Assembly: GCA_043810695.1 (NCBI GenBank)
Contig: JBDRNV010000002.1
Span: forward strand, 5,015-69,014
Reading direction: 5' to 3'
Source of the DNA: Nanobdellota archaeon
GTDB taxonomy: Archaea; Nanobdellota; Nanobdellia; Pacearchaeales; GW2011-AR1
DNA length: 64,000 nucleotides
Every line of letters starts with the position of its first letter. Within the stretch, counting starts at the first letter, position 1. The notes under the pieces were generated by a model that was given only the letters and a program-made list of their open reading frames with translations, did no database searches and had not been told where the DNA came from. Below, one piece after another: positions 1,045 to 56,774 of the stretch. Both the position numbers and the translations under genes were made by a program.

Positions 1045-1077
1045 CAACACCAGTTTCCCATCTTTATCCCTGAGAAA
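1045..1077. repeat. copy a of nuclease-gene 3' end
   Basis: acaacaccagtttcccatctttatccctgagaaa; differs at about 5 of 34 positions from copy b, more diverged from the true end. Confidence 0.7.
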
Positions 1078-1210
1078 TGTCTAAAACATTTTCAATGTTC
1101 TTCAAATCCTGCCATTTAATAAAGAAACATTTAAATAGTTTTGTTATATTAATATTACAATTGTAAATAAAATATTACATATGTAATAAAAAAATAACGC
1201 TAAAGAGAGC

Positions 1211-1735
1211 ATGCTAAATAAATACAGCAGATACAGGGTTTTAAGGGTTTTTTTGCAAAAACCAACAGAAAGTTTTGGATTAAGGGAAATCGGTCGTCTT
1301 AGCAAATTATCTCCACCATCAGTGATTAAGTATCTAAAAGAGTTTGAATTAGATGGGCTAATAATCAAAACAGAAAAAAAAGGAATTCCCTCTTATCAAG
1401 CAGCCAAAGAAAATGAAGATTTTATCTTTTATAAAAAGGTAGATATTTTATATGAACTTCATAGTTCTGGTCTTGTCGACTATTTGTGGCAGAAATTAGG
1501 CCCAAATGCAATAATTTTATATGGAAGCCATGCAAAAGGGGAAGCTGCAGAAAACTCTGACATTGACATATTTATTATAGGAAAAGATAAAGATATTGTT
1601 CTGGCAGAATTTGAGAAAAAATTAGGTAGAGAAATACATTTGATGTTTGATAATAATGTAAAAAACATTCCGAGTGAACTTAAAAATAACCTAATCAACG
1701 GAATTATATTAAAAGGTTATTTTAAGGTGTTTTAA
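1211..1735 (+). CDS. wHTH + minimal nucleotidyltransferase (MNT-type, HEPN/MNT module)
   Basis: 'ILYGSHAKGEAAENSDIDIFIIG' = GS...DxD NTase motif; N-terminal winged-helix-like region; paralog at 2841..3368. Confidence 0.75.
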   Translation: MLNKYSRYRVLRVFLQKPTESFGLREIGRLSKLSPPSVIKYLKEFELDGLIIKTEKKGIPSYQAAKENEDFIFYKKVDILYELHSSGLVDYLWQKLGPNAIILYGSHAKGEAAENSDIDIFIIGKDKDIVLAEFEKKLGREIHLMFDNNVKNIPSELKNNLINGIILKGYFKVF

Positions 1736-2139
1736 TGATAATCAAAGTTTTTCCAGATAAAGAAAAAGCAAAGTCTATTCTAAAAATGGCCAATTCAAGG
1801 GAGCAATTTCTGAAAGACATGGAAAAAATAAAAATTTATTCAACAATAATTACTGAGAATTATTACGAAATAATTAAGGAGCTTTGTATAGCTGTAATCT
1901 TAACTGATGGTTATAAGGCCATTGGAGAAAATGCTCATAAAGAATTAATTGATTTTATGCGAAGATACAAAGAATTCAATGATTTTGAGATAGAAACAAC
2001 CTAGGATCTTAGGATAAGAAGAAATAAAAGCGCCTATGAAGGAAAGCAAATAGAACTAGTTTATCTGGAAAATAACAGGAATACTTTAATTAAGATAATT
2101 TCTAAACTAAAGAAAATTTTAGAGGGAAAACTTGACTAA
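1735..2139 (+). pseudogene. HEPN-domain partner of MNT, interrupted by in-frame TAG at 2002-2004
   Basis: 89-aa ORF stops at TAG; same frame continues 'DLRIRRNKSAYEGKQ...' (HEPN-like R-x-x-RN motif) to TAA at 2137-2139; start overlaps MNT stop (TAATG). Confidence 0.55.
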
Positions 2140-2161
2140 ACAATTATTATCTCTAAAATCC

Positions 2162-2203
2162 TTTTCCACAACACCAGTTTCCCATCTCTGTCCCATAAGA
2201 AAA
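2162..2203. repeat. copy b of nuclease-gene 3' end
   Basis: ttttccacaacaccagtttcccatctctgtcccataagaaaa; 34/41 identical to 3432-3472. Confidence 0.85.
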
Positions 2204-2233
2204 GAAACATTTATAAATAACTTACCATTATTT

Positions 2234-2575
2234 ATGTGTATGAAAATTAGTAAGGAAGACTTGCTTCGCATAAACAAAGGATTTGGAGGAAATCTTAGAA
2301 GCGACTCAAGTCTTGATTTTGCTATTGATAAAATAAACAGCTCAAAATTAGGGTTTTATAATAGATTAGCCTATTTATGGAGAGCAATATTAGTTGACCA
2401 CCCCTTTTCAGATGGTAATAAGAGAACAGCTGTATTTTTAGCATATGCTTTTGCAGAAGAAAGCAAGAAATATGTAGATAGAGATATATTAGTTCATCAA
2501 GCTATTTCAATAGCAAAGAAAAATATCACCAGTATAAGACAAATAGAATGGAGACTTAAAAATGCAATTAAATAA
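2234..2575 (+). CDS. Fic/Doc-family toxin
   Basis: 'HPFSDGNKRTA' = Fic motif HxFx[DE]GNxR; the tracked ORF start at 2132 is a TTG that reads through the repeat, ATG at 2234/2240 is more plausible. Confidence 0.75.
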   Translation: MCMKISKEDLLRINKGFGGNLRSDSSLDFAIDKINSSKLGFYNRLAYLWRAILVDHPFSDGNKRTAVFLAYAFAEESKKYVDRDILVHQAISIAKKNITSIRQIEWRLKNAIK

Positions 2576-2774
2576 AAAAATAATTAATAGGATATTGAAA
2601 AAGAATAAAAAAGCATTTGAAATGCTAGAAAATTACGATAAAACAAGAGAACTTCCATTTCAAAGAAAAAGAATAGATATTACTCTATCAGTGGAAACAC
2701 TAAGAAAACTTAAGGAATTAAAGGAAAAAACAAAAAAATCAATTTCCCAAATTATTGAAGAAAAAATTCAATAG
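2562..2774 (+). CDS. putative ribbon-helix-helix antitoxin-like protein
   Basis: 70 aa; 'RIDITLSVETLRKLKELKEKT' resembles an RHH beta-strand/helix; overlaps Doc stop. Confidence 0.4.
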   Translation: MQLNKKIINRILKKNKKAFEMLENYDKTRELPFQRKRIDITLSVETLRKLKELKEKTKKSISQIIEEKIQ

Positions 2775-2775
2775 C

Positions 2776-2815
2776 TTTTCCAAAAAATCAATTTCCCCTT
2801 CATCCTTCAACAAAA
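2776..2815. repeat. copy c of nuclease-gene 3' end (most diverged)
   Basis: ttttccaaaaaatcaatttccccttcatccttcaacaaaa followed by catttatata. Confidence 0.6.
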
Positions 2816-2840
2816 CATTTATATACCAAAGGGTACTAAA

Positions 2841-3368
2841 ATGTATATTATGGTACAAAGAAGTATACCGAGCTTATTTGCAGTTATTGAAGTCTTCTTT
2901 CAAGAGCCCACAAAAATACATTTTATCAAAGAAATAAGCCGAGAGATAAAACTTGCTCATACTTCTGTGAGAAACATAATAAAATACCTGGAGAAAAATC
3001 ATATAATTGTTAAGAAAAAATCAAAACCATTTGACGGATACACTGCAGATAGAGAGAATGAGGATTTTATCTTCTATAAAAAGGCTTACAATATTTATTC
3101 GTTGAAAGATATAACCCGTGAAATAGTAAATTCTGTTTATCCTTCAGCAATCGTTCTTTTCGGGTCTTATTCTCGCGGAGAAGATGTAGAATCAAGTGAT
3201 ATTGACATATTTGTTCTTTCTAAAGCAAAAAAAGAGATAAATGTCTCCCCATTTGAAAAAAGCCTTAAGAGAAAAATAAATATAATGACTCTCGACAGAA
3301 TTGAAAAACTTGATGAATTAATAAGGAAAAAAATAAATAACGGGACTGTTTTGCATGGTGAAATATGA
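2841..3368 (+). CDS. wHTH + minimal nucleotidyltransferase (second MNT)
   Basis: 'VLFGSYSRGEDVESSDIDIFVLS'; same architecture as 1211..1735. Confidence 0.75.
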   Translation: MYIMVQRSIPSLFAVIEVFFQEPTKIHFIKEISREIKLAHTSVRNIIKYLEKNHIIVKKKSKPFDGYTADRENEDFIFYKKAYNIYSLKDITREIVNSVYPSAIVLFGSYSRGEDVESSDIDIFVLSKAKKEINVSPFEKSLKRKINIMTLDRIEKLDELIRKKINNGTVLHGEI

Positions 3369-3430
3369 TAGAAGACAGAGTATTTAGGATAAACAAAGAT
3401 AAAGAAAGGGCAGAGGATCTTTTTATATAG
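3365..3430 (+). pseudogene. 21-codon remnant of a HEPN partner gene
   Basis: ATGA overlap with MNT stop as in the first pair; 'MIEDRVFRINKDKERAEDLFI*' parallels 'MIIKVFPDKEKAKS..' then ends where the nuclease gene end begins. Confidence 0.4.
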
Positions 3431-4175
3431 ATTTCCACAGCACCAATTTCCCTTTTTCATCCCATAAGAAAATCGTGTCTCCTGTTTCTGTTAAATCTAA
3501 TTCAAAAGAAACTTCTTCTCCGTTGCCCAATGTTTTTTCCTGGAAGATTGTGTTGTTTCTTCCTTCTGCTTTTATTCTCCATCCAGTTATATCACATGAA
3601 AAATCACAGATATTTTCCAATGTCTCAGAATCTTTCAGTATTATGCAAGAAGCACATTTATGCGATGAAGCTTCGCAGAGATTAATATTACTATTAATAC
3701 AGCTATCCCAGGCTTTAGTAAATTCTGAATAATGCTTATCTTTGCCAGAAGGAAAATAATAATTACCAAATCCATTTTCTACCATTTTAATATTAATATT
3801 CTCATTTTCTAAAAAAACATATGCAAGCGTTCTGTAATATTTATCATAGCGCTCTTTTCCAAATTCAAGCAGAACTGTTTTATTGAAAACCAGCTGTTCA
3901 AGAAATTCTTTTGCCTCTAAATAATATAACTCTCCGCGTTCAGGTGTGTTAATTCCTAAAAGCCTTATACTTGTGTCATTAGACTCAATTGTATCTCCAT
4001 CTATAACTCTATTCACAAAAACTTCTTGTCTTGTATCGAGGAAATTATTAAGTGTGTTATCAAGAATAGGATAATTTAATATAAATAGGGCAAGAATAAG
4101 TGCAATTAACAAAATAATATCCCTTTTCCTAATTGACTTTTGAATAACTTTTTTATTTAACATTAATAATTGCAA
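3423..4175 (-). CDS. membrane-anchored staphylococcal-nuclease (SNase) homolog with C-terminal lamin-tail-like domain
   Basis: N-terminal TM; 'VIDGDTIE...IRLLGINTPE' and 'RYDKYYRTLAYVF' SNase motifs; C-terminal 'ITGWRIKAEG...FLWDEKGKLV' LTD-like. Confidence 0.75.
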   Translation of the reverse strand: MQLLMLNKKVIQKSIRKRDIILLIALILALFILNYPILDNTLNNFLDTRQEVFVNRVIDGDTIESNDTSIRLLGINTPERGELYYLEAKEFLEQLVFNKTVLLEFGKERYDKYYRTLAYVFLENENINIKMVENGFGNYYFPSGKDKHYSEFTKAWDSCINSNINLCEASSHKCASCIILKDSETLENICDFSCDITGWRIKAEGRNNTIFQEKTLGNGEEVSFELDLTETGDTIFLWDEKGKLVLWKSI

Positions 4176-4717: not shown

Positions 4718-5713
4718 ATGCCAGAGATGAGTAATATGATTCTGCTTGCAGATAAGAATTCTAAAGCTTGGAATTTTGCAGAGAAAATTCAAAATTATAT
4801 CTTAACTCAAAAAGGAAATTTGATTCCTCTTCAAGAAGTAGAAATAACTCATTTCAGAAATGGAGAACTTAACGCTCATGTTCCAGAGAATGTTAGAAAA
4901 AAAGATGTTTACTTTATTCACGATTCCACAAAAAATCCACAGGAATGGTGGATAGAACTTATTTTGATAAGAGATCTTTTGCTTTCTTCATCTGCAGGCT
5001 CTATTACTCTTGTTCTTCCAAATATGCTGTATAGCAGGCAGGATAGAAAAGACAAACCTCATGTTCCAATATCAGCCCGAGCTCTTGCAGAATCAATATC
5101 TCAGGGGGTAAGCAGAATTATCACAATGGATTTGCATGCTCCTCAGATTCAAGGATTCTACCCAGCAACAACTCCTTTAGACAATCTTTACAGTTTTCCA
5201 GAAGCTGTTGACTTTCTAAGAAAAAACTTTTATTCAGATTTAGATAATATTGCAATTATTGCTACAGATGCAGGAGGAGCAGGACGTGCAAGAGCTTTTT
5301 TAAAAAAAATGAACAAAATTCAAGAAAAGGATGTTCTAAAACAAAAATATTCTCTTGCTTTAATGGATAAGATAAGGACAAAAACAGGAGAAGTAGAAGA
5401 AATGAAATTAATAGGAGATATTACTAATCAAAATATTTTAGTTGTTGAGGATATTATTGACTCTGGCGGAACATTATGCAAAGCAGCAGAATTATTAAAG
5501 AAAAACGGAGCAAAAAAATTATTCTGCTATGCAACACATGGAATTTTTACAAAAGGCGTATCAGAGCTTTCTAATTGTTATGATGTTATTCTAACAAGCA
5601 ATACTCATTATTCAGAGAACTCAAACGTGAAGATTGTTGATGTTTCCCCTTTATTTGCAGAAGCTGTTTATAGAGCACAAAAAGGACTTTCTATTTCTGA
5701 ATTGTTTGGATAG
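4718..5713 (+). CDS. prs: ribose-phosphate pyrophosphokinase
   Basis: 'FRNGELNAHV', 'RQDRKD', 'VVEDIIDSGGTL' PRPP-synthase motifs. Confidence 0.9.
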   Translation: MPEMSNMILLADKNSKAWNFAEKIQNYILTQKGNLIPLQEVEITHFRNGELNAHVPENVRKKDVYFIHDSTKNPQEWWIELILIRDLLLSSSAGSITLVLPNMLYSRQDRKDKPHVPISARALAESISQGVSRIITMDLHAPQIQGFYPATTPLDNLYSFPEAVDFLRKNFYSDLDNIAIIATDAGGAGRARAFLKKMNKIQEKDVLKQKYSLALMDKIRTKTGEVEEMKLIGDITNQNILVVEDIIDSGGTLCKAAELLKKNGAKKLFCYATHGIFTKGVSELSNCYDVILTSNTHYSENSNVKIVDVSPLFAEAVYRAQKGLSISELFG

Positions 5714-5715
5714 AT
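5679..5715. repeat. prs 3' end (genuine), left copy of a 37-nt perfect direct repeat
   Basis: aaaaaggactttctatttctgaattgtttggatagat, identical to 6528-6564. Confidence 0.9.
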
Positions 5716-5739
5716 ATCTTTTGAATTAAAATTTAGATT

Positions 5740-5760
5740 ATGAGGGTGAAAGGATTCGAC
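5740..5760 (-). pseudogene. fragment of the tRNA-Leu 3' end (T-arm/acceptor)
   Basis: atgagggtgaaaggattcgac vs atgcgggtgaaaggattcgaac at 6573-6594. Confidence 0.7.
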
Positions 5761-5860
5761 AAAAAGGAATTGCGAATTATTATACAAATCTTTAAATATG
5801 TATATTATTTTTGAGCGGTTGTTTAAAATTATATTCCAAAAATAATTCAGGACAAATAAA

Positions 5861-6247
5861 ATGAAATTTAGCTCAACACCAGCGATGCAGGCAATAGGTT
5901 GTGTGACTAGTTTAGTTAGCCTAGGTGCTTTTGCAAGTGGTATTTATCAAGGGATTTCTAATTCAAAAGGTATTGAAATAGAACCAAATACGCTAATATT
6001 AATAAGATATGGCCCTATAGCGCTTAATGGTCTTTTAGGAATTCCTGCAGCACATGCTTTTTCAAGTGATAAAGAAAATTTAGAAGAAATGGTTAATGGT
6101 GCACCACCAAACTTAGATCAACAAGAAGCAGAAGGATGTTCAAAAAGTTATGCAGGTTGCACTTTTCCTTTTATAGGTGTTGTAGCTACATCTCTTATTG
6201 AATATGCTGGTTATTTGGTCGGCGGTGCTATTGGTGCATCAGTATGA
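5861..6247 (+). CDS. Gly/Ala-rich membrane protein, unknown
   Basis: 128 aa, hydrophobic N- and C-terminal segments; ATGA-coupled to yidD. Confidence 0.4.
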   Translation: MKFSSTPAMQAIGCVTSLVSLGAFASGIYQGISNSKGIEIEPNTLILIRYGPIALNGLLGIPAAHAFSSDKENLEEMVNGAPPNLDQQEAEGCSKSYAGCTFPFIGVVATSLIEYAGYLVGGAIGASV

Positions 6248-6507
6248 AACTAGAAAAAATACTTCAATCATTAGAGATATTATCAATTAAAGGATATAAG
6301 AAAACAACTTCTCCTATATACTCTCTTTTAAATTCTTTTAATATCAATCCTTTTCGATGCAGATATACACCTTCTTGTTCACAATATGCTGAACAAGTAA
6401 TCAAAGAATGGGGTGCCTATAAAGGAACGTTTATGGCTTTAAAGAGAATTATGAGATGTAATCCTTATGGTGGATTTGGTTATGACCCTGTTCCTAAGAA
6501 AAAATAA
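6244..6507 (+). CDS. yidD: YidD-like membrane protein insertion efficiency factor
   Basis: 'CRYTPSCSQYAEQVIKEWGAYKGTFMALKRIMRCNPYGGFGYDPVP' matches the conserved YidD core. Confidence 0.75.
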   Translation: MKLEKILQSLEILSIKGYKKTTSPIYSLLNSFNINPFRCRYTPSCSQYAEQVIKEWGAYKGTFMALKRIMRCNPYGGFGYDPVPKKK

Positions 6508-6527
6508 TATGCAAAGGTAGGGGTAGA

Positions 6528-6564
6528 AAAAAGGACTTTCTATTTCTGAATTGTTTGGATAGAT
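6528..6564. repeat. second (non-coding) copy of the prs 3' end
   Basis: 37/37 identity with 5679-5715, stop codon included. Confidence 0.9.
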
Positions 6565-6573
6565 TCAAAGCCA

Positions 6574-6657
6574 TGCGGGTGAAAGGATTCGAACCTTCGC
6601 AGGCACTAAGCCACAAGATCTTAAGTCTTGTCCGTTTGACCGCTCCGGCACACCCGC
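6574..6657 (-). tRNA. tRNA-Leu (anticodon UAA), class II, no encoded CCA
   Basis: Hand fold: GCGGGTG acceptor, anticodon stem CAAGA/TCTTG with loop CTTAAGA, long variable arm, T-arm GAAGGTTCGAATCCTTT. Confidence 0.85.
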
Positions 6658-6798
6658 ATGAATGGCGCCGCTGCGACGTTCATCACGCTACAGCGTTTGT
6701 TGTATTTCTCAGAAGTTATGTTGCTTAAAAAAGTTTCTTATTAACTTAATAGCTTAATTTAGAGCAACCTTTATTAATACTTTATACTTTTTTTCTTT

Positions 6799-13394: not shown

Positions 13395-13931
13395 ATGTGG
13401 GAAATAATACTTGTAATTTTAATACTATCTTGTCTTTTTGTAATGTCTTGGTTTCTTATGATTCCTTGGTTTTTTGGAGCGCCCTATGATATTACAAGAA
13501 AAAAAGCCCTGAAAAATATAATAAAATTAACAAATCTTCAATCAAAAGATAAAATTGCAGAATTAGGTTCTGGAGATGGAAGAATTTGTATTGCTTTAGC
13601 TAAGAAAAATCCAAAAGCAAAAATTTATGGTTTTGAAATAAACCCTTTTTTAGTTTTTATATCCAGAAGAAAAATCCGAAAATTAAATCTTCAAAATCAA
13701 ATAAAAATTTATTGGAAAAATTTCTTTAAAGTCAATCTAAAAGACTTTAACAAAATAGTCTTTTTTCAATTTCGTTCAATAATCCCAAGATTAGAAGAAA
13801 AATTCAGAAAAGAGCTAAAAACTGGTACAAAGATAATTTCTCATAACTGGCCTTTGCTTAATTGGAAAGCTAAAAAACAATTAGGTAAAAAGCATTTATT
13901 AGAAGGAATTGTTTATTTATATGAAAAATAA
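13395..13931 (+). CDS. class I SAM-dependent methyltransferase with N-terminal TM
   Basis: 'IAELGSGDGRICIALA' motif I. Confidence 0.6.
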   Translation: MWEIILVILILSCLFVMSWFLMIPWFFGAPYDITRKKALKNIIKLTNLQSKDKIAELGSGDGRICIALAKKNPKAKIYGFEINPFLVFISRRKIRKLNLQNQIKIYWKNFFKVNLKDFNKIVFFQFRSIIPRLEEKFRKELKTGTKIISHNWPLLNWKAKKQLGKKHLLEGIVYLYEK

Positions 13932-14639
13932 TTATTTTTCAAAATTCTTTAGAAAATCGCTTTCAACATAATGAAGTTTTAATGAAGGAATAATTAGACA
14001 AAATGGCTTTTCTATCTTTTTTGTTTTTAGTTTACTAATATCTCCATAATAAACTTTGAAATTATCTGTTCCTAATTGTGAGCAAACAATTATTTTATCC
14101 AGCTTAATTTTATATTTATCACCATTTTTAATTAATTTCTCTAAAGCATTCTTAAAATTCAAGCCAATATCAATTAAAATTAATGAATGTGCTTCAATGC
14201 TTAAATTTTGCTTAACAATGTTCATATAACTATCTGCTTCAAAACTTGGCATGCTTGTTATTTTTCCAAATTTGTAAATTTGAAGTCCTGTTTCTCCAAT
14301 CGCATCTAAAATAGAAGCATTATGAAAAACTTTTAAGTTAATTCCCTGCTTTTCAGCTTCCTCAAGTATTGAAACATGAGTGGTGGCGACTAAAGGTGAG
14401 CCATAAACCAGCAAAGCAATATCTATTTTTTTTGCTTCATCTAAAAATTTTAAACTCTCTACAAATCCCCTGTCTGCAGAAATAATTTTCTTTTTGATTA
14501 CTTCTTCTAATTTTTCAAAAGAATATGGAAAATCCACTGTGTAATTTTCAAGATAAATCTTTTTGCATTTTTTTAGTACTTCAAGACTCTGCTGTGAAAT
14601 TCCTTTTTCATTTAAACCCAAACCAATAAGATATAGCAT
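13932..14639 (-). CDS. dph5: diphthine synthase
   Basis: 'MLYLIGLGLNEKGIS...IYLENYT' tetrapyrrole-methylase-type N-terminus typical of Dph5. Confidence 0.8.
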   Translation of the reverse strand: MLYLIGLGLNEKGISQQSLEVLKKCKKIYLENYTVDFPYSFEKLEEVIKKKIISADRGFVESLKFLDEAKKIDIALLVYGSPLVATTHVSILEEAEKQGINLKVFHNASILDAIGETGLQIYKFGKITSMPSFEADSYMNIVKQNLSIEAHSLILIDIGLNFKNALEKLIKNGDKYKIKLDKIIVCSQLGTDNFKVYYGDISKLKTKKIEKPFCLIIPSLKLHYVESDFLKNFEK

Positions 14640-36403: not shown

Positions 36404-36415
36404 GGCATTATTTAA

Positions 36416-36961: not shown

Positions 36962-36963
36962 AA

Positions 36964-38623: not shown

Positions 38624-38649
38624 AATCAATTCCAACCATTTATTAAAAG
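38624..38649. repeat. 26-nt direct repeat, left
   Basis: aatcaattccaaccatttattaaaag; 25/26 identical to 39117-39142. Confidence 0.85.
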
Positions 38650-38654
38650 CTTAA

Positions 38655-39029: not shown

Positions 39030-39116
39030 GAATATTAATATTCTTTAAAAGGATTTATGTTAATTATTATATCTAAAAAAGATAAAATTTAGATTATAAT
39101 TTTAACTTGATAATCT

Positions 39117-39142
39117 AATCAATTCCAACCATCTATTAAAAG
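39117..39142. repeat. 26-nt direct repeat, right
   Basis: aatcaattccaaccatctattaaaag. Confidence 0.85.
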
Positions 39143-39614: not shown

Positions 39615-39656
39615 AAAAGCTGGTAAATAAATACTTCTAGAATGAACATTAGATTA

Positions 39657-41729: not shown

Positions 41730-41764
41730 TTTTCTCAATGAAAATTTTAGTAATTATGTAAAAA

Positions 41765-49185: not shown

Positions 49186-51723
49186 ATGCCAAATAAAAAA
49201 AAGAGTGGAAAAATAAGAGTTTTAAATAATATAACAAAAAAAAATCAAGATACTAAAACAAAATCAAAAATTCCTCTAATTTTATTATTGTTATTTTTTG
49301 GTGCTATTATAATCTTATTATTTTATATTCAGTATAAACCAAAAATGACAGGATTTGCTGTATGTGTTGTAGATGGTTTTTGTAATAGCCCAATTGAAGA
49401 TTATTTTAACTGTCCAACAGATTGTTTACCTGCATGTCCTAATGCAGTATGTGAAGTTCCAGCAGAATACAGTTGTGGTGGTGCAGCCTGTGTTGCAGAT
49501 TGCGGTGCTTGTGGTACAATAGCACTCTCTATTACTTATCCAAGTAATAATCAGTATGTTCCTTCTTCTTCAATAACCGTTACAGGAACTTCAAATAATA
49601 CAAATGAGGTAAGAATTAAACTTAATTTAGACCCTGATAGTCGAGTTTGTTTTGGAGCTGTTGGAACTTGTAACTCTTGGAATAAAATTTTATTTTTGAA
49701 TCTTGGAAGTAATACCATAGAAGTTTCCGCTAGTAACGGAGGTGAACTAATACCTTATCTTTCAAGAACAGTATATTATGATCCAACACCCCCAACAATT
49801 ACTATAAATTCACCTTCAAATGCATCTAATGTAAGTTCTAGTCCAATAAATATTAATGGTGTAGCTAGTGATAATGTTAATCTAAATAAAGTTGAATTAA
49901 GAGTTAATGGTAAAACATGGGAATTAGCTTCTGGAACAACTTATTGGAATAGAGGAATGTATTTAGATAGTGGAATTAATTATATAGAAGCAAGAGCAAC
50001 AGATGGTGCTGGAAATACTCAAATCGCAGCTATAACTCTTTACTATAATGTTCCACCAATTCCAACAAATCTTATTGCAAACACAATATCAACAACACAA
50101 ATAAATTTAAGTTGGACAGATGTAGATTCTGAATTAGATTATTATATTGAAAGATCTTCAGATGGAATTAATTTTGCTCTAATTGATGTTGTTAATGCAA
50201 ATATTATCTCTTATTCAAGTACAGGCTTAACAGTTAATACACAATACTGGTATAGAATAAAAGCTCATAATAATGCAGGAAATTCTTCTTATTCAGGTAT
50301 CGCTACAGCCACAACTTTTGCAGTACCTCCTCCTTCTGTAACTCTAATTACTCCCTTAGATAATAAAATATCTCAATCTCCAGTAAGTTTTTCTTGTAGT
50401 TCTAGCAACACCGACTTAGTTAGTATGTCTTTGTATGGACAATGGAACACAGGATGGCATTTAGAAGAAACTCAAAGTTGTACTCTTGGACAAGCTTGTT
50501 CAATTAATTTTATTAATAAACCAATTTCCGACGGAACTTATAATTGGAACTGTCAAGCATGTACATTAGAAGTTTGTGGATTTGCTATTTTTAATAGAAC
50601 AATTATAATAGACACAACAAATCCAGTTGTATCTTTTATTGATCCAACACCTTTAAATGATGAATTTGTAACTAGAACCTGGATTAATATGTATGTTTCT
50701 GTTACAGAATTAAATGAAGCAAATATAACTTTTAATTTATATGATTCAAATTCAATACGAATAAATTCAACTACTTTTTTTACTTCTTTTGATAGAAGTA
50801 TAGCTTTTATTAATTTAAGTTATGGAAATTATAGTTATGATGTGGTTGTAATTGATAGAGCAAATAATATTGGTAGTACAGAAAGAAGAATTATACGTCT
50901 GCAAGAACCAGTTCCAGTTCCAGGTGCTCCTAACATAACTTTTGTTTATCCAACACCTGATAATTTTAAATCACAATCTGAAACAAGTGCTATTATTAAT
51001 GTAACTGTAAATGATACTGTTAGTGAAATAAAAAATTGTACATTAAGATGGAATAATGCTAATTTTTCGATGACTAAAGTTGGTTCTGGTTTAAATGTGA
51101 GTTGTTATCTTCAAAAAACTTCTTTATTGCCTGGAAGTTATATTTACTCTGTTTATTCTACAAATTCGCAAAATATCACAGGAATGAGCGAAGAAAGACT
51201 TTTGCATGTTGTAGGTGAGGATATAACCACAGGAGAACCTGTATTTGAATTGCTTACTACAGTTATTTCTGGAAGTAATTTTGTTAACGAGAGTATTTTA
51301 TCTTTAATTGAAATTAGTACAGGAACTTCAGAACCAATTACTGTTGGATTAAGTTATATTATAATGGACGAAAATGAAATGCCATTTTATAAAGAAAATG
51401 ACAATATTAAAATAACAGGTGGCTTAATAATAAATAAATGGTTTACAGCTCCAGCTGAAAATGGAAATTATAGGCTAAGAGTTATTTTAGATTATAAAAA
51501 TCTAGAAAAAGAATCAGAAGATAGATTTAGTGTTGGTTCTAGAATTATACCAAAAATAGAACCTAGCATTTGGAATGTTATAATATCAGTAATTATTATT
51601 ATTGCAATTGTTTTTGGATTAAGATTATTAGGTCCAATCGGTGCATTGCATGAGAAAAAGAAAAAATCAAATTCATCTGAGAATAATAAATCAGATACTT
51701 CTTCAGAGAAAAAATCTTCCTAA
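49186..51723 (+). CDS. bitopic cell-surface protein with Cys-rich, Ig-like and fibronectin-III domains
   Basis: N-terminal TM, 'CNSPIEDYFNCPTDCLPACPNAVC', FN3 'INLSWTDVDSELDYYIERSSDG..YWYRIKAHN', C-terminal TM. Confidence 0.65.
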   Translation: MPNKKKSGKIRVLNNITKKNQDTKTKSKIPLILLLLFFGAIIILLFYIQYKPKMTGFAVCVVDGFCNSPIEDYFNCPTDCLPACPNAVCEVPAEYSCGGAACVADCGACGTIALSITYPSNNQYVPSSSITVTGTSNNTNEVRIKLNLDPDSRVCFGAVGTCNSWNKILFLNLGSNTIEVSASNGGELIPYLSRTVYYDPTPPTITINSPSNASNVSSSPININGVASDNVNLNKVELRVNGKTWELASGTTYWNRGMYLDSGINYIEARATDGAGNTQIAAITLYYNVPPIPTNLIANTISTTQINLSWTDVDSELDYYIERSSDGINFALIDVVNANIISYSSTGLTVNTQYWYRIKAHNNAGNSSYSGIATATTFAVPPPSVTLITPLDNKISQSPVSFSCSSSNTDLVSMSLYGQWNTGWHLEETQSCTLGQACSINFINKPISDGTYNWNCQACTLEVCGFAIFNRTIIIDTTNPVVSFIDPTPLNDEFVTRTWINMYVSVTELNEANITFNLYDSNSIRINSTTFFTSFDRSIAFINLSYGNYSYDVVVIDRANNIGSTERRIIRLQEPVPVPGAPNITFVYPTPDNFKSQSETSAIINVTVNDTVSEIKNCTLRWNNANFSMTKVGSGLNVSCYLQKTSLLPGSYIYSVYSTNSQNITGMSEERLLHVVGEDITTGEPVFELLTTVISGSNFVNESILSLIEISTGTSEPITVGLSYIIMDENEMPFYKENDNIKITGGLIINKWFTAPAENGNYRLRVILDYKNLEKESEDRFSVGSRIIPKIEPSIWNVIISVIIIIAIVFGLRLLGPIGALHEKKKKSNSSENNKSDTSSEKKSS

Positions 51724-51728: not shown

Positions 51729-51760
51729 CTATTGGTTTTCACTGATGTCTTCCGATGTCT
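51729..51760. repeat. copy B3 of the aEF-2 3' end
   Basis: ctattggttttcactgatgtcttccgatgtct; closer to B1 than to the genuine end. Confidence 0.65.
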
Positions 51761-51852
51761 TTTTTCTGAAAAACCATTGTAGGGTTTTATTGATTTTTCT
51801 GGAAGTACTTTTTTTAGTATATTTTTTAAATAACAATTTATTATAGAATTAT

Positions 51853-52062
51853 ATGAAATTGAAAAATATTAAATCAAAAGAGGTTATTAAGATTTTAGAA
51901 AAGAATGGTTTTGAAATTAAAAGACAAACAGGAACACATGTTATTTTAAAGAATAATGGAAAAATGGTTGTTGTTCCAATTCATCATAAAACTATTCCAA
52001 CAGGAACTTTAAAAAGTATAGAAAAACAATCAGAAATTAATTTTAGAGAAATAATCGGGTAA
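51853..52062 (+). CDS. hicA: HicA-family toxin
   Basis: 'KSKEVIKILEKNGFEIKRQTGTHVIL' YcfA/HicA pattern. Confidence 0.75.
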   Translation: MKLKNIKSKEVIKILEKNGFEIKRQTGTHVILKNNGKMVVVPIHHKTIPTGTLKSIEKQSEINFREIIG

Positions 52063-52276
52063 TCATTAAGGGTTCTTCCTTTTTCAAAAGTTCTTTTTTT
52101 TCAGGGGCTTCTTCCAACAAAAGCCTAATAGCATTTTTGAGATTATCAAAAGCCTTATCAATAGTCTCTCCAAAATCACCCACTCCCAATTCAACAGCTT
52201 CAACTACAAAAATTTTAGTTCCATCACTTAATTCTTCTTCATGTATAGAAACATTGCAGGATAATTTTTCTTCCAT
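52043..52276 (-). CDS. hicB: HicB-like antitoxin
   Basis: 'FVVEAVELGVGDFGETIDKAFDNLKNAIRLLLEE' UPF0150/HicB-like; convergent with hicA and overlapping it. Confidence 0.55.
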   Translation of the reverse strand: MEEKLSCNVSIHEEELSDGTKIFVVEAVELGVGDFGETIDKAFDNLKNAIRLLLEEAPEKKELLKKEEPLMITRLFL

Positions 52277-52306
52277 ATTTAAAATAAAATTCCAGAATAT
52301 TTAAGG

Positions 52307-52338
52307 TTATTGGTTTTCGGCCAAACCCTTCCTCTGCT
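52307..52338. repeat. copy B2 of the aEF-2 3' end
   Basis: ttattggttttcggccaaacccttcctctgct; 23/32 vs 53380-53411. Confidence 0.65.
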
Positions 52339-52366
52339 TTGACTTTTAGGCGAAGTAACTAAAGGC
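52339..52366. repeat. degenerate copy of the near-palindromic element
   Basis: minus strand GCCTTTAGTTACTTCGCCTAAAAGTCAA vs rps7-locus GGCTTTCATTACTTCGCCCAAGCTTGGTCAA. Confidence 0.6.
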
Positions 52367-52402
52367 TTATTGGTTTTCACTGAGGCCTTTACGTTGCCTC
52401 AT
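52367..52402. repeat. copy B1 of the aEF-2 3' end
   Basis: ttattggttttcactgaggcctttacgttgcctcat; 27/36 vs 53380-53415. Confidence 0.75.
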
Positions 52403-52413
52403 TCTAAAATCAA

Positions 52414-52713
52414 CTAAGAAAGTAGCTCATCTAATTTTTTTCTAATCATCTCTTCTATTTTTTCACCAAACATTTTTGCTACAAAAGGTAATTTTCCTTC
52501 TAAACTAATTTGCTTATCTTTTAAATGAATTTGTCCACTAGTTTTAAATCCCATAACTTTCATACTAAAATTCATTTGAGTACAGTCAAGATTCCAATTT
52601 AATTGAGAGTCACTTATTTTATCAGAATATTCTTCTTGTAACTCTGGCAGAAGTTTATTTATTCGTTCATATGTTTCTTGAATTGTTAAATTATGAAGAT
52701 AATCTATTCTCAT
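52414..52713 (-). CDS. hypothetical protein (faint resemblance to PHA-granule-region proteins)
   Basis: 99-aa ORF; 'GKLPFVAKMFGEKIEEMIRKKLDELL' tail. Confidence 0.3.
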   Translation of the reverse strand: MRIDYLHNLTIQETYERINKLLPELQEEYSDKISDSQLNWNLDCTQMNFSMKVMGFKTSGQIHLKDKQISLEGKLPFVAKMFGEKIEEMIRKKLDELLS

Positions 52714-52796
52714 ATTTTTATATAAAAACTTTTGTTTATAAGATTTATGAATTATTTTTCTTTAACAAAATTTTGCTGATTTTCTGATTGATGAAA

Positions 52797-53378
52797 TTAT
52801 TTATTTTTAATTATTTTAATAAATCTACAAGCGTCATAAATATTTTCTGCTATAAACTTTGCCCTGGTTTTTTCAATTTCTTTCTCATTTCTTTTTACAA
52901 GTATTCCTGTCATTTTAAGTTTTTCTGCAAGTAGTAAATCAGATTCTCTATCACCTATAACATAAGAGTTCACAAAATCTATATCATATTCTCCCTTCAA
53001 AGAATCTATCAAGCCTGTTTTTGGCTTTCTGCATGTGCAAATTTCTTCTGAAGTATGTGGACAAAAAAGCCATTTTTCAATTGTAATACCATGTTTACCA
53101 AATTTATCTGTTAAGATATTCTCAATCTTATTGTATAATTCTATTGTTAATGTACCCCTATTAATTGCATCTTGATTGGTGATAATGAAAATAGTATAAC
53201 CCATATTAATCATTTTCTTAAGGCCTTTAATCGCATTTGGTAAAATATGTAATTTAGAAATTGAATCTACATCAGCATCTGAAGTATTTTTCCTTCTTAA
53301 ACTGCCGGGTTCTTCTACAATTGTTCCATCCCTGTCTAAAAATATCGCTTTTATGGAAAATTTTTTATTATTTATCAT
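52797..53378 (-). CDS. HAD-IIIA phosphatase (GmhB/histidinol-phosphatase-like)
   Basis: 'IFLDRDGTIV', 'CPH...CTCRKPKTG' Zn loop, 'VIGDRESD'. Confidence 0.7.
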   Translation of the reverse strand: MINNKKFSIKAIFLDRDGTIVEEPGSLRRKNTSDADVDSISKLHILPNAIKGLKKMINMGYTIFIITNQDAINRGTLTIELYNKIENILTDKFGKHGITIEKWLFCPHTSEEICTCRKPKTGLIDSLKGEYDIDFVNSYVIGDRESDLLLAEKLKMTGILVKRNEKEIEKTRAKFIAENIYDACRFIKIIKNK

Positions 53379-53379
53379 T

Positions 53380-55569
53380 TTACTGATTCTCGCTCAAACC
53401 CTTACGTTGCCTTATCTTTCTTACAATGTCTGGCTGAAGGCTTGCAGGAACTTTTTCAAACAGCTGGTCTAACAAAGACGATGTTCCTCTTCCTTCTGTC
53501 GCGCTTCTTAAATCACTGCTCCACCCAATCATTTCTGCGACAGGAAGTTTTGCTTTCATGTCTGCTTGTGTACCTTCTTGTCTTACTTCAAGCATCTGTC
53601 CTCTTTTTCCTCCAACTAATTTTGTAACAGCACTTAAGAATTTATCAGGCATTTCTATAAGATAAATCTGTATTGGTTCAAAAAGATAGGCATTTGCTTT
53701 TTTCATTGCTTCTACAATTGCTTCTCTTACAGCAGGATAAACCTGTGCAGGCCCTCTGTGAATTGCATCTTCGTGAAGTCTTGTATCTACAAGTGAAACC
53801 CTAAGTTTTATACAGGGTTCTCTTGCTAAAGGTCCCTGGTTAATAACCATTTCAAATGCATCAAGAACCATTTCAATTACTTCTCCTATATGAACCTCTC
53901 CTCTTGTTTCATCAAGAAAAATATTTCCTTTGTAAATATCTCTTACATTTCGTATTGTATCACCAGACCATCCTAATTTTGAAAGAACATTTGCAATTTC
54001 CTCATTTTTTTTCTTAATTCTTCCTTCTCTTAATTCTCCGCTTTTTATTGCCTTGTATACTTCATCTTCAAGAGGCTCAACTTTCATATAAAAGCTGTTA
54101 TGTTTATTAGGGCTTCTTCCTTCTATTTCAGGAGATTCTCGACCTATTGTTTCTCTGTAAACTATGATTGGAGAAGAGGTTTTAACATCAAGTCCTTTTT
54201 CTGTTTTAATTCTGTTTTCTATAATCTCAAGATGAAGTTCTCCCATTCCAGACATAAGGCTCTCTCCTGTTTGCTCGTTTATTTCTATTTTTATGGAAGG
54301 GTCTTCTTTTGCAACTTTTTTTAGAATCTCAACAAGCTTTGGAAGGTCAGATGTTTTTGTAACTTCAATTGCTTTTGTTATAACTGGTTCAAAAATATGT
54401 TTGAGTTCTTCAAAAGAAGTTTCTGGTTCAATTGTTACTGTTTCTCCTGCTTCACCAGTAACACCTGCTATTGCCAAAACATTTCCACATCCTATTTCTT
54501 CAAGCTGTTCAGGCTTTATTCCATTATAAATAAATACCTGCTGTATTTTCTGTCTTTTTTTTGCAAGATTTAGATAGACTTCCATCCCTTGTTTTAATGT
54601 TCCTGAGAATAATCTTCCAGCTGAAATCTCTTTTCCAGACTTTGGGTCTATTACAATTCTTGTTATAACAAATGCTGGTTTTCCTTTTGGATCGCAGTTT
54701 ATAAGGGATTTTCCAAAATCACTATTTAAATCTCCTCTCCATATTTTTGGAATTCGATATTTTTGTGCTTCCAGAGGGCTTGGAAGGTGCTTAACAACCA
54801 TATCCAGAAGAACTTCATAAAGAGGAGCATTTTTCCAGCACCATTCTTTTCTTTCAGCATCTGACATTTCATAAAGATTGAAAATATCTTTAAAAGTTAT
54901 TTTTTTCTTTTGCATAAAAGGAACAGAAAGCGCCCAGTTTTCTCTTGCAGAACCAAAAGCAACGCTTCCGTCTTTTATATCAACTTCCCACTTTTTCTTG
55001 AATTCAGATTCTGCAATATTATTAATTAATTTATTGAAGTCTTCATATATTTTTATGAATCTTTGCTGCATCTGCTCTGGCGTTAGTTTAAGCTCTTTAA
55101 TTAGCCTGTCTACTTTATTGATGAACAAAACAGGTTGTACCCTTTCTCTTAATGCTTGTTTTATAACAGTCTCTGTCTGAGGCATTATTCCTTCAACAGC
55201 ACATACAAGAACAATTGTTCCATCAATAGCCCTCATCGCTCTTGTAACATTTCCAGAGAAATCCACATGTCCTGGTGTATCAATAAGATTAATCAAATAC
55301 TCATCTCCATGAAATTCATGAACCATTGAAACGTTTGCAGCATCAACTGTCAATAATCTCTCCTGTTCGTCTGCATGCTGCCAGGTTGCCATACCTGCTT
55401 CCAAATCTCCTGCAGATTTTACAGCCATAAATCCAGAAGCAGCGAGAAGATTATCTGTCATTGCCGTCTTGCCATGATGAATATGTGCAGAAGTTGCAAT
55501 ATTACGAATATATTTTTGTTCTCTGCTAAGTCTCTGAATTTTCTTGAACTGTGTTTCTTTCTCTACCAT
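53380..55569 (-). CDS. fusA: translation elongation factor aEF-2
   Basis: 'SAHIHHGKTA', 'DTPGHVDF', diphthamide loop 'HEDAIHRGPAQV'. Confidence 0.9.
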   Translation of the reverse strand: MVEKETQFKKIQRLSREQKYIRNIATSAHIHHGKTAMTDNLLAASGFMAVKSAGDLEAGMATWQHADEQERLLTVDAANVSMVHEFHGDEYLINLIDTPGHVDFSGNVTRAMRAIDGTIVLVCAVEGIMPQTETVIKQALRERVQPVLFINKVDRLIKELKLTPEQMQQRFIKIYEDFNKLINNIAESEFKKKWEVDIKDGSVAFGSARENWALSVPFMQKKKITFKDIFNLYEMSDAERKEWCWKNAPLYEVLLDMVVKHLPSPLEAQKYRIPKIWRGDLNSDFGKSLINCDPKGKPAFVITRIVIDPKSGKEISAGRLFSGTLKQGMEVYLNLAKKRQKIQQVFIYNGIKPEQLEEIGCGNVLAIAGVTGEAGETVTIEPETSFEELKHIFEPVITKAIEVTKTSDLPKLVEILKKVAKEDPSIKIEINEQTGESLMSGMGELHLEIIENRIKTEKGLDVKTSSPIIVYRETIGRESPEIEGRSPNKHNSFYMKVEPLEDEVYKAIKSGELREGRIKKKNEEIANVLSKLGWSGDTIRNVRDIYKGNIFLDETRGEVHIGEVIEMVLDAFEMVINQGPLAREPCIKLRVSLVDTRLHEDAIHRGPAQVYPAVREAIVEAMKKANAYLFEPIQIYLIEMPDKFLSAVTKLVGGKRGQMLEVRQEGTQADMKAKLPVAEMIGWSSDLRSATEGRGTSSLLDQLFEKVPASLQPDIVRKIRQRKGLSENQ

Positions 55570-55637
55570 TTTTTTCTCCAGAGGAGAGAGTGGACGGACT
55601 TTGTTCGTACTCTTTCAGCCATATTATATTGAATCAA

Positions 55638-55661
55638 AAAATTGTTTTTAAATGTTTTTGG
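55638..55661 (-). promoter_or_regulatory. conserved BRE/TATA promoter motif upstream of aEF-2
   Basis: minus strand CCAAAAACATTTAAAAACAATTT-type motif. Confidence 0.55.
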
Positions 55662-55708
55662 TGTTGAATAATACAAGAATTTAAAAAGAAAATAAAGAAA
55701 ATACATCA

Positions 55709-56089
55709 ATGAAAAAAATATTAATACAAGATAGATTTTCTACTGATAGTCATATTGATTCATTAAAGAATCTTTTAGAGTTGGAGTTTAAGGATAAACA
55801 AATTGAATTCAATCTTGTTTTCTGTTTGAGAGGCGCTAAATTTCCTATAATCGATTACAATTTAATTATTTCACACCCACCTATTTTTGATAATTGCTGT
55901 GTTCCATTGATTGAACAAGCTGTTAGAAAGAATGTTCCTGTTGTTTTTAGATATCATACTAAATATCCTCATGGTAATGAAATAGAAGCCATAGCTCAAA
56001 ATCTTGGGATGGATATAAACTATAGTAGTAGTGGAAATTGGAGAGAAGTATATGGTAATATAATCAAAAAGTTTATAGAAAAAGATTAA
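55709..56089 (+). CDS. hypothetical protein (cassette ORF, antisense to the ribosomal operon)
   Basis: 126-aa ORF whose stop abuts the rps7-end copy. Confidence 0.4.
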   Translation: MKKILIQDRFSTDSHIDSLKNLLELEFKDKQIEFNLVFCLRGAKFPIIDYNLIISHPPIFDNCCVPLIEQAVRKNVPVVFRYHTKYPHGNEIEAIAQNLGMDINYSSSGNWREVYGNIIKKFIEKD

Positions 56090-56114
56090 TTATCGTGCGC
56101 TATCTACCTGCTTT
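56090..56114. repeat. degenerate copy of the rps7 3' end
   Basis: ttatcgtgcgctatctacctgcttt vs ttatcgtgccgagtcggcttgcttt at 56154-56178. Confidence 0.6.
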
Positions 56115-56153
56115 ACTTTGACCAAGCTTGGGCGAAGTAATGAAAGCCGACAA
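56115..56153. repeat. 39-nt near-palindromic element (CCAAGCTTGG core)
   Basis: ACTTTGACCAAG|CTTGGGCGAAGT (10/12 arm pairs) plus aatgaaagccgacaa. Confidence 0.7.
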
Positions 56154-56774
56154 TTATCGTGCCGAGTCGGCTTGCTTTTCAGATTCAATTTTCTTTTTAA
56201 CAGCAAAGCTTTCTTGATTTCCTTCAGAAGCAAGCATTATTTCTTCTGCAATTCCCTGAGCAAGATCTTTTTTCTTGCCGAATGCTTTTTCAGAAGCACC
56301 ATGAATAATATGCTTTAAAGCAAGATTTACTCTTCTTAAAGGAGATACGTCAACTGCCTGGGGATATCTTGCTCCACCATATTCTATTACTGTTATTTCA
56401 TCTCTTGGTGCAGAATTTTCAACAGCTTTTATGAGAATCTCTATAGGATTTTTTCCTGTTTTTTTTGCTATTTGTTCAAAAGCATCAAGTACAATCCCTG
56501 TATTTTTTGAATATTTTCCAGTTGAAGTCCCAACCATAAGTTTATGTTTTTTTCCTCTATGCCCTGCAACACCTATTTTATTTATCAGCCTTTCAACTAT
56601 ATTGACTTTTGTCTGCCCGAATTTCTGAACATTTCTTCCATGGCTTTTCAGAGCCAGCTTTGGAGTTAGGTTTATCGCATCCTTAAGTCCTACATCTTTT
56701 ACCTGAATTCCTTCTGTCTCATATAAATCAAAAATTTTGAATGTAAGTGGCTGTATGTTTTTTTGTTCTGTCAT
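56154..56774 (-). CDS. rps7: 30S ribosomal protein S7 (uS7)
   Basis: 'VNIVERLINK', 'IEYGGARYPQAVDVSP.RR' conserved uS7 blocks. Confidence 0.9.
   Translation of the reverse strand: MTEQKNIQPLTFKIFDLYETEGIQVKDVGLKDAINLTPKLALKSHGRNVQKFGQTKVNIVERLINKIGVAGHRGKKHKLMVGTSTGKYSKNTGIVLDAFEQIAKKTGKNPIEILIKAVENSAPRDEITVIEYGGARYPQAVDVSPLRRVNLALKHIIHGASEKAFGKKKDLAQGIAEEIMLASEGNQESFAVKKKIESEKQADSAR

Follow-up and report, generated by a model that had tools for sequence, protein, structure and literature searches.

Gene ends recurring as direct repeats around small inserted units in a Pacearchaeota (DPANN) genome

In Archaea, integrated mobile genetic elements (iMGEs) and casposons target the 3′ ends of the elongation factor 2 (EF-2) gene and of tRNA genes, and form tandem arrays (PMC6563490). 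The bacterial cis-mobilizable elements (CIMEs) are integrase-less units flanked by attachment (att) sites, which stack by accretion (PMC5704250). Here we analysed a 64,000-nt stretch of contig JBDRNV010000002.1 from a Nanobdellota archaeon (positions 5,015 to 69,014; the whole stretch is called the window), in which at least eight gene ends, those of an SNase-family nuclease gene, prs together with tRNA-Leu, smc, pcm, dnaG, the EF-2 gene, the ribosomal protein S7 gene and two more, recur 28 nt to 1.65 kb downstream. In DPANN archaea, whose genomes are very small, with patchy gene order, many bacterial-type genes and few mobile elements that can be recognised, a regular scar at gene ends gives a direct handle on how genes are gained and moved. 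The window, with a GC content of ~30% and an EF-2 protein 88% identical to its homologue in a Candidatus Pacearchaeota metagenome-assembled genome (MAG), belongs to a Pacearchaeota (DPANN) genome. It was compared with the 80 best related loci (10 kb on either side of EF-2), which come from Pacearchaeota, Woesearchaeota or Nanoarchaeota assemblies only and are labelled by L-numbers. L001 and L002 are independent contigs of the same species, and L130-L134 are contigs from three further samples.

A preliminary description of this DNA, made from the sequence alone, could match the pattern to no described system. This was too strong, as archaeal iMGEs and casposons (PMC6563490) and CIMEs (PMC5704250) are comparable: the pattern is a variant of gene-3′-end integration with att-type repeats and tandem accretion, and what is unusual is the tiny units, the many target genes, the lack of a recombinase in the window and the DPANN host. 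In the archaeal integrated elements and casposons of Thaumarchaeota and Methanosarcina (PMC6563490, PMC4779613), as in the window, the target gene end is present in direct repeats, the final codons and the stop may come from the element, the targets include EF-2 and tRNA-Leu ends, and re-use of a site gives arrays. Those elements are, however, multi-kb in size and carry an integrase or a Cas1 casposase, and casposons have terminal inverted repeats (TIRs) and target-site duplications of 14-15 bp. The units described here measure 0.03-1.2 kb and contain no integrase, Cas1 or PolB found by Pfam and no TIRs seen by eye; their repeats are 18-45 nt long, and at least eight targets lie within 64 kb. 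CIMEs (the ICESt1/ICESt3 family at the 3′ end of fda in Streptococcus; PMC5704250) are likewise integrase-less, keep attL and attR derived from a housekeeping 3′ end without integration or transfer genes, as is seen in the window, stack beside the target gene and in many cases carry toxin-antitoxin (TA) or defence cargo. They differ in being bacterial, in having one target per family and in needing the integrase of a cognate integrative and conjugative element (ICE) or integrative mobilizable element (IME), whereas no integrase or parent element was seen here and no cognate integrase-bearing element occurs among the strong hits of 61 large open reading frames (ORFs) in the gaps of the 80 related loci. 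Integron arrays and clusters of attC sites lacking integron integrases (CALINs), including archaeal integrons (PMC9668308), also consist of small one- or two-gene units that are TA-rich and have no recombinase of their own. In contrast, we found here no IntI with attI and Pc (no Phage_integrase domain in the window ORFs scanned) and no attC hairpin: the boundaries are locus-specific host gene ends, i.e., host coding sequence, with no shared hairpin or GTTRRRY box (by eye, with no formal attC model), and the cassettes have their own promoters, lie in either orientation and occupy many platforms instead of one. No description of the pattern was found in the literature searched on DPANN cassettes, integrons and introns. 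In transformable bacteria, homology-facilitated illegitimate recombination imports foreign DNA alongside a long anchor in a conserved gene by means of a short second junction; to our knowledge it is undescribed in archaea, and we know of no case in which it leaves regular terminus copies or arrays.

The seven duplicated gene ends of the preliminary description were all recovered, at or near the places it gave, by self-comparison and direct reading. When a 48-nt query was aligned locally with the next 3 kb of the same strand, a score of at least 18 was reached by 5 of 72 gene ends in the window, by 0 of 40 mid-gene queries and by 0 of 72 reverse-complemented ends. In the window and the 80 related loci together, 14 ends passed this score and the reversed-query controls gave 0; such ends are about eight times as frequent in the window (7%) as in its relatives (0.8%). 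Repeats concentrate at gene ends beyond chance and are not equally common away from them, a possibility raised beforehand, and the top-scoring short-range direct repeats of the window nearly all involve a gene terminus. By an independent peptide-based search, 19 EF-2 pseudo-termini were found in 17 of 71 Pacearchaeota genomes (0 on the opposite strand), and 5 of 59 S7 termini are followed, 52-66 nt downstream, by a second QADSAR and stop (0 in reverse). The pattern is real, has statistical support and is found widely in Pacearchaeota.

Every locus has the same plan in gene orientation: a resident terminus, an insert and a pseudo-terminus, sometimes reiterated (Table 1). The similarity of the copies begins 18-45 nt before the stop and almost always ends at the stop or within 2 nt of it; the earlier wording, the terminal 25-45 nt with the stop included, does not hold for pcm, whose repeat is 20 nt long and ends 1 nt before the stop. 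A BRE/TATA-like box starts a few nt from one repeat copy, as had been claimed, and the last stop codon of the insert lies within ~10 nt of the next copy (both by eye). The inserted units face either way relative to the core gene, no motif common to the seven terminus sequences is seen by eye, and Rfam at the gathering threshold gave nothing at the junctions. The scar is not carried by every insert: no terminus repeats were detected around MazEF (21577-22136) or around two ORFs (o106/o73) between S12 and S7 (56776-57320).

Pfam agrees with the gene names assigned earlier. The core genes encode SNase, Prs, SMC, PCMT, DnaG (Toprim), aEF-2, S7 and S12, as well as RNA polymerase (RNAP) subunits, EF-1a and several aminoacyl-tRNA synthetases; the small units are MNT, Doc/RHH, ParE with an antitoxin, PIN with an antitoxin, HicA, MazF, NYN and YidD, together with a HAD phosphatase and a PHA-granule-like protein. 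Of the cassette contents listed in the preliminary description, MNT, Doc/RHH, YidD, ParE, PIN, NYN and HicA were thus recognised by Pfam and HEPN and HicB were not: the HEPN-like partner in cassette A (ORF 1735-2004) has no Pfam family, and the supposed HicB (ORF 52043-52276), which is convergent with HicA, has no significant Pfam match and one faint match to DUF7387. As stated before, the window has no integrase, transposase or reverse transcriptase (RT); with Cas1 included, 0 such domains were detected by Pfam in ~75 window ORFs, and no recombinase is present among the ORFs between repeat copies, all of which were scanned.

L001 and L002 align with the window at 99.9% and gap-free over the SNase junction and the EF-2 array in full, and the gene order smc-RelBE-pcm-VapBC is the same in the contigs of the three further samples. 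The arrays are not assembly artefacts, because independent assemblies match them without gaps and further samples share the gene order. Among five same-species samples we found no empty sites: at those SNase, smc-pcm and EF-2 loci for which there were contigs, the gene order was the same and presence/absence polymorphism was not seen; a look-up of prs among the same-species contigs found nothing. The arrays are fixed in the species as sampled.

Between species, by contrast with this, occupancy does vary, in line with the earlier proposal that related genomes be searched for empty and alternative sites: the S7-EF-2 and EF-2-EF-1a sites are empty, or hold a mini-insert or a cassette, depending on the species. 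The order RNAP A′-o137-S12-S7-EF-2-EF-1a is conserved in the relatives and each gap is variable. The S7-EF-2 gap is 3-13 nt in L004, L033, L036, L069 and L071 and 1-3.5 kb in L011, L017, L018 and L043, and that from EF-2 to EF-1a ranges from 68 nt to 8 kb. The EF-2 end has nothing inserted in some relatives, a 17-60 nt insert with a pseudo-end in L029, L031, L047, L044, L062, L081 and L043, one small ORF in L004, L015 and L055, and HicAB in L032, L065 and L068. The large gap ORFs of the relatives are ordinary genes (PAP2, Sua5, thymidylate kinase, adenylosuccinate lyase and others), and no integrase, transposase, Cas1 or RT is among the strong Pfam hits of the 61 examined. The term accessory cassettes, used earlier, is too narrow, since relatives hold housekeeping genes in the same gaps and NYN is conserved. 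NYN has more than 400 close homologues, the best 120 of them at ≥72% identity, and lies at the EF-1a end in L020 and at dnaG in the window's clade; being conserved yet relocated, it indicates that the process also moves conserved genes. We considered a recent horizontal transfer of NYN (89.5% aa identity to L020 vs 80% for EF-2) and rejected it, as NYN is simply very conserved in Pacearchaeota. The R1-NYN-dnaG arrangement occurs also in a sister species (L135), where R1 matches the resident end at 39/43 and a GNAT gene is added.

The differences between the copies bear on their origin. The observed number of substitutions was placed at random on the resident sequence and amino acid changes were counted. 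By this measure, EF-2 R0 and R1 differ at 9 nt and 1 aa (P<5e-5), R0 and R2 at 8 nt and 1 aa (P=1e-4), and the S7 pair at 8 nt and 2 aa (P=0.004); for the SNase pairs P=0.005-0.02, with Rb and R0 differing at 7 nt and 2 aa (P=0.005). The resident end of EF-2 encodes IRQRKGLSENQ, and the copies encode MRQRKGLSENQ, SKQRKGLAENQ and KKTSEDISENQ, each followed by a stop; in S7, R0 and R1 match at 19/27 and R1 encodes KQVDSAR and a stop. As the differences are almost only synonymous, the EF-2, S7 and SNase copies were functional ends while diverging. Moreover, the nucleotide identity of the 19 EF-2 pseudo-termini to their own resident end (0.64) is no higher than that to the ends of other genomes (0.63), which means that either the pseudo-terminus or the present terminus came from another lineage. 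R2 of the window, for instance, has 2/27 differences to the resident ends of L007 and L044 and 7/27 to its own. Judged by the synonymous bias and by own-end identity equal to between-species identity, these copies are displaced functional termini, not decayed local duplicates. The same two lines of evidence support the earlier suggestion that the repeat travels with the incoming cassette and is not copied locally; the related claim that distal copies resemble each other more than the resident end holds for EF-2 R1 and R3 and in part for SNase Ra and Rb. At prs, which is convergent to tRNA-Leu, two prs/tRNA blocks are separated by unrelated spacers, an arrangement predicted by a single crossover with the prs-tRNA junction of another lineage and not by simple target duplication. 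Read-through or frameshifting into the second copy was rejected as an explanation, the spacings being not consistently in frame by eye.

Our favoured reading, which we hold tentatively and at somewhat less than an even chance, is that the joining is homology-dependent, is anchored on a conserved gene terminus and stacks compact transcription units. Homology dependence is preferred to sequence specificity because at least eight unrelated termini are involved within 64 kb and no recombinase is nearby. Each junction would record a recombination event for which the final 18-45 nt of a conserved gene were the anchor: incoming DNA with its own version of the terminus and a compact unit (from BRE/TATA to stop), or at minimum a 25-48 nt palindromic mini-element alone, would be joined at the resident terminus, one copy would stay fused to the gene and keep it intact, and the other would be left beyond the insert as a pseudo-terminus. 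Repeated events would stack units, giving the three cassettes and four termini of SNase and the three inserts and four termini of EF-2. The joining might be performed by host homologous recombination, with either a looped-out circle (Campbell type) or a linear fragment for which the pseudo-terminus is the right-hand arm, and new docking sites might arise from illegitimate insertions, rarer events in which the junction is duplicated. The repeats, their concentration at gene ends, coding-like divergence and foreignness, the variable occupancy between species and the lack of recombinase genes are shown; the recombination mechanism, the direction of transfer and the form in which the DNA came in are inferred. 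More than one mechanism is probably at work, illegitimate events creating a docking site and terminus recombination spreading and stacking the units. It is attractive to speculate, with somewhat more doubt, that Pacearchaeota practise a distributed, recombinase-free capture in which any housekeeping gene can lend its conserved final 18-45 nt as a portable homology arm; moving together with a compact transcription unit, the arm would let units enter beside that gene in distant lineages and accumulate there. If so, many gene ends would together act as an integron that lacks an integrase, and alongside it a 24-48 nt palindromic mini-element would insert after stop codons and in frame in essential genes. 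If the joining is homology-guided, it would show how selfish TA modules, and even core genes, spread without an enzyme of their own. In any genome of the group, the scar would make it possible to count past insertions, put them in order and date them.

Several points weigh against homology-dependent joining. No circular form, within-species empty-site allele or donor genome was found, and the divergence between species (~80% nt identity) is too great to tell the native copy: neither a mosaic analysis of EF-2 for a recombination tract, the relatives being all ~80% nt identical, nor the nearest-neighbour genome resolved the native terminus. For homologous recombination in archaea, 18-45 nt is a short arm, and we know of no value for the arm length in DPANN. 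The EF-2 repeat boundaries cluster at ~18 nt in six cassette-bearing genomes, and the tRNA-Leu copy starts in the T-loop, both of which are typical of site-specific att sites. Inserts of 26-40 nt cannot be circles. The near-identical repeats of smc (in three species), prs and pcm, together with the dnaG pair, fit local duplication equally; the latter, with 9 nt and 5 aa differences (P=0.40), is neutral-like and looks like a decayed local duplication. Finally, as NYN is found at different gene ends, the terminus arm cannot be the sole way in which units move.

The strongest competitor, which we rate somewhat below the favoured reading, is site-specific integration by recombinases encoded elsewhere, the units being integrase-less, att-flanked satellites (CIME/IME-like) or deletion remnants of larger elements; in the remnant version, integrase-bearing elements integrated serially in gene 3′ ends and their addictive TA modules survived. 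The archaeal precedent comprises 3′-distal integration in protein and tRNA genes, stop replacement, a preference for EF-2 and tandem arrays (PMC6563490), and CIME formation and accretion are the bacterial one (PMC5704250). The tRNA-Leu copy running from the T-loop to the 3′ end, the ~18-nt EF-2 repeat and the stop codon of pcm, which is supplied by the cassette, look like att sites, and the enrichment in TA modules and degenerate toxins fits element decay. On the other hand, an integrase was seen neither in the 64 kb nor among the strong Pfam hits of the relatives' gap ORFs, though at least 17 EF-2 sites are occupied; at least eight unrelated targets would demand many recombinase specificities; and inserts of 17-40 nt recur across species, while the conserved NYN is flanked in the same way. 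In the relatives this covers the 10-kb flanks, which leaves room for an enzyme that acts in trans. Mobilisation in trans, as proposed in the preliminary description, is hypothetical, with neither a circular junction nor an integrase seen at any locus.

Local duplication of the junction is, in our view, slightly less likely still. Any insertion, whether by illegitimate recombination, staggered-break end joining or slippage, would duplicate 18-45 nt of the target, and only events straddling a gene boundary would survive in a genome with almost no intergenic space. Identical or near-identical pairs agree with it (smc 43/44, with the same architecture in L009 at 43/43 and L049 at 41/42; prs 37/37; pcm 20/20; L115 24/24; L123 18/18), as do the purely intergenic repeat 38624/39117, the tandem end copies without an insert (39542/39592, and L038), the duplicated gene starts in L069 and L016, and the neutral decay at dnaG. 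An empty site for the 38624/39117 cassette was sought in the close relative L135, where the region is not alignable. However, local duplication cannot explain the synonymous-only divergence at EF-2, S7 and SNase, pseudo-termini no closer to their own end than to those of other species, or the unrelated spacers in the prs/tRNA repeat; repeat ends that cluster at the stop (+0 to +2 nt) are unexpected from random staggered cuts, and in-frame mini-elements inside genes without a flanking duplication also speak against it. Assembly or chimeric-join artefacts do occur in related MAGs, where perfect 45-48 nt gene-start duplications (48/48, 45/45) flank 100-nt N runs (L008 8680-8778, L034 6664-6763) and were rejected as real cases, being scaffolding artefacts of similar appearance; this origin is effectively refuted wherever independent contigs cover the locus, since the window junctions contain no N, L001 and L002 have no indels, the smc-pcm order recurs in three further samples and diverged copies cannot come from misassembly.

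The short near-palindrome that had been counted among the inserts is present, albeit not as a kind of cassette: it is a separate mini-element that happens to occupy junctions. A 24-nt palindromic core, ACTTCGYCCAAGCKTGG..., separates the terminus copies of smc and those of S7, facing the same way with respect to the gene, and the mini-element is found again at smc (L009), S7 (L007) and EF-2 (L062); the S7 architecture is repeated in L007, L008, L019, L062 and L103. A metagenome scan found the mini-element in 22 low-GC DPANN contigs. Copies after stop codons are flanked by duplications of 18-25 nt (L115 24/24, L123 18/18, L103), the range over all gene-end copies being 18-44 nt, and copies inside genes have no flanking duplication. 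Seven internal copies are in frame and stop-free, in genes for AspRS (two contigs), Cbf5-like, CCA-adding-like and uS17-like proteins and two others; those inspected add ~16-19 codons (16 in AspRS), ending ...TSPK(R/L)GQSK. The frame and the lack of stops favour translation over splicing. In its consensus, the element folds as a simple imperfect hairpin whose core is invariant, with no covariation and no closing helix by eye, and the variable 5′ hairpin shows compensatory changes. For a C/D-box sRNA or a bulge-helix-bulge (BHB) intron, the latter defined by two 3-nt bulges on either side of a 4-bp helix at the exon-intron borders, no convincing motif was seen by eye. A scan of viral contigs for the palindrome gave 15 matches, all in unrelated coding DNA of 39-62% GC. 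Similar short palindromes that sit after genes and in frame in essential genes, adding a conserved peptide, are the Rickettsia palindromic elements, repetitive extragenic palindromes with their REP-associated tyrosine transposases (REP/RAYT), and MITEs, the miniature transposable elements with inverted repeats (PMC10969869). The mini-element differs from these in length (24-48 nt vs ~100-150 nt), in being archaeal, in its 18-44 nt duplications at gene ends and in having no transposase linked with it; one Pacearchaeales genome is reported to carry a RAYT (bioRxiv 10.64898/2026.05.13.725050). Annotators should be warned that short extra gene ends and repeat-spacer-repeat mini-arrays in these genomes are neither CRISPRs nor assembly errors.

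Of the local repeats that the preliminary description did not list, the strongest is 22800-22872 / 23309-23381. It is the variable region (VR) and template repeat (TR) of a diversity-generating retroelement (DGR), not a cassette junction; no RT gene was found in the window for this DGR (22770-23381). DGR activity as a general explanation was rejected, as the SNase and EF-2 mismatches are not adenine-specific, only one pair of the window is, and no RT was found in the window.

Table 1. Coordinates of the features in the window (R0, resident terminus; other R, pseudo-terminus or copy)
Feature	Position	Strand	Evidence or remark
SNase-family nuclease gene	3423-4163	-	Pfam SNase, E=6e-16; exact protein on independent contig L001
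SNase R0	3423-3472 (matched part 3432-3472)	-	Self-comparison
Cassette C: MNT 2841-3368, 21-codon HEPN-like stump abutting SNase stop	2816-3422	+	Pfam NTP_transf_2
SNase Rc, diverged, 2-nt gap	2771-2815	-	Local alignment score 18, reached by 0.2% of random windows
Cassette B: Doc/Fic toxin ~2238-2575, RHH antitoxin 2562-2774, TATA-like box 2210-2219	2204-2770	+	Pfam Fic, RHH_1
SNase Rb, encodes FLWDRDGKLVLWK	2163-2203	-	34/41 to R0
Cassette A: MNT 1211-1735, HEPN-like ORF 1735-2139 (by position)	1080-2162	+	MNT: Pfam Polbeta/NTP_transf_2
SNase Ra, encodes FLRDKDGKLVLFDSL and stop	1031-1077	-	Self-comparison
prs R0 5679-5715, 24-nt spacer, 20-nt tRNA-Leu 3′ copy 5740-5759	5679-5759	+	prs by Pfam
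Cassette: 128-aa ORF of unassigned function 5861-6247, YidD homologue 6244-6507	5760-6527	+	Pfam YidD
Second prs terminus 6528-6564, 8-nt spacer, intact tRNA-Leu(UAA) 6573-6658	6528-6658	tRNA on -	prs repeat 37/37 to 5679-5715; tRNA-Leu 3′ 20 nt (6573-6592) 19/20 to 5740-5759
DGR VR	22800-22872		Within ORF 22249-23049; mismatches at TR adenines 10/11
DGR RT-16 RNA	23091-23307		RF03019, 76 bits
DGR TR	23309-23381
smc R0 26399-26442, 26-nt palindromic mini-element, R1 26469-26512	26399-26512	+	43/44
RelB-like/ParE cassette, TATA-like box right after smc R1	26513-27026	+	Pfam ParE_toxin
pcm terminus 28010-28029, VapB 28071-28322, VapC (PIN) 28301-28708, copy 28713-28732	28010-28732	+	20/20; Pfam PCMT, PIN
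dnaG R1 36295-36335, NYN 36366-36961 (+), dnaG R0 36962-37002 (-)	36295-37002		32/41; Pfam NYN, Toprim
Intergenic direct repeat of 26-28 nt 38624-38649 / 39117-39142, flanking 124-aa ORF on -	38624-39142		25/26
Tandem copy of the end of ORF 39201-39614 (39542-39586 / 39592-39636)	39542-39636	+	73% identity, 5-nt spacer; second copy retains intact alternative C-terminus
EF-2 array, four termini, three inserts	51729-53415	-	Same array on independent contig L002
EF-2 R0	53380-53415	-
EF-2 insert 1: HAD 52797-53378, PHA_gran 52414-52713	Between R0 and R1
EF-2 R1	52367-52402	-
EF-2 insert 2: 24-nt spacer containing TTACTTCGCC	Between R1 and R2
EF-2 R2	52307-52342	-
EF-2 insert 3: 77-aa ORF 52043-52276, HicA 51853-52062	Between R2 and R3
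EF-2 R3	51729-51764	-
126-aa ORF of unassigned function, between S7 and EF-2	55709-56089	+
S7 R0 56154-56180, hairpin and palindromic mini-element (core 56115-56138), R1 56090-56116	56090-56180	-
Mini-element core ACTTCGCCCAAGCKTGGTCAAAGT with variable 5′ hairpin	26447-26470, 56115-56138, 52343-52366		Also at loci L102-L129

The HEPN-like partners of cassettes A and C look like parts of degenerate TA modules: the former is broken by an in-frame TAG (2002-2004), and the latter (3365-3430) is truncated to 21 codons by the SNase terminus. YidD (6244-6507) is a bacterial-type membrane protein insertion efficiency factor (E=4e-23) in an archaeal cassette between prs and tRNA-Leu. EF-1a (40443-41738) sits 11.6 kb from EF-2 in the window, vs 68 nt to 8 kb in the relatives, and between the two lie a PAP2 gene and the genes for a 1749-aa protein (43801-49050) whose ATPase region is HerA/FtsK/TrwB-like and for an Ig/fn3 surface protein of 845 aa (49186-51723). 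In L030, L032, L058, L068, L080 and L021, the EF-2 genes have internal insertions of 0.5-1.4 kb near the N-terminus, which could be inteins. In L016 (6860-6970), ~400-500 nt past the stop of RNAP A′, there is an insert of 507 nt. Its flanking repeat spans ~38 nt before to ~95 nt after the stop and so takes in the end of the gene, the promoter and the next gene's first 9 codons; the insert has at its end a GC-rich tail of ~100 nt that looks structured, and its ORF borrows the duplicated start.

Self-comparison also found perfect or near-perfect palindromes of 20-26 nt at 22135-22156, 13922-13941 and 44692-44717. A tRNA gene of 138 nt (20450-20587, - strand; Rfam 45.9 bits), presumably intron-containing, was missed by ARAGORN. 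Upstream of dnaG, a non-coding block (window 38252-38341, L135 3546-3639, L138 4960-5042) keeps 79-82% identity between species within intergenic DNA that is not alignable, and may be an RNA or a regulatory element.

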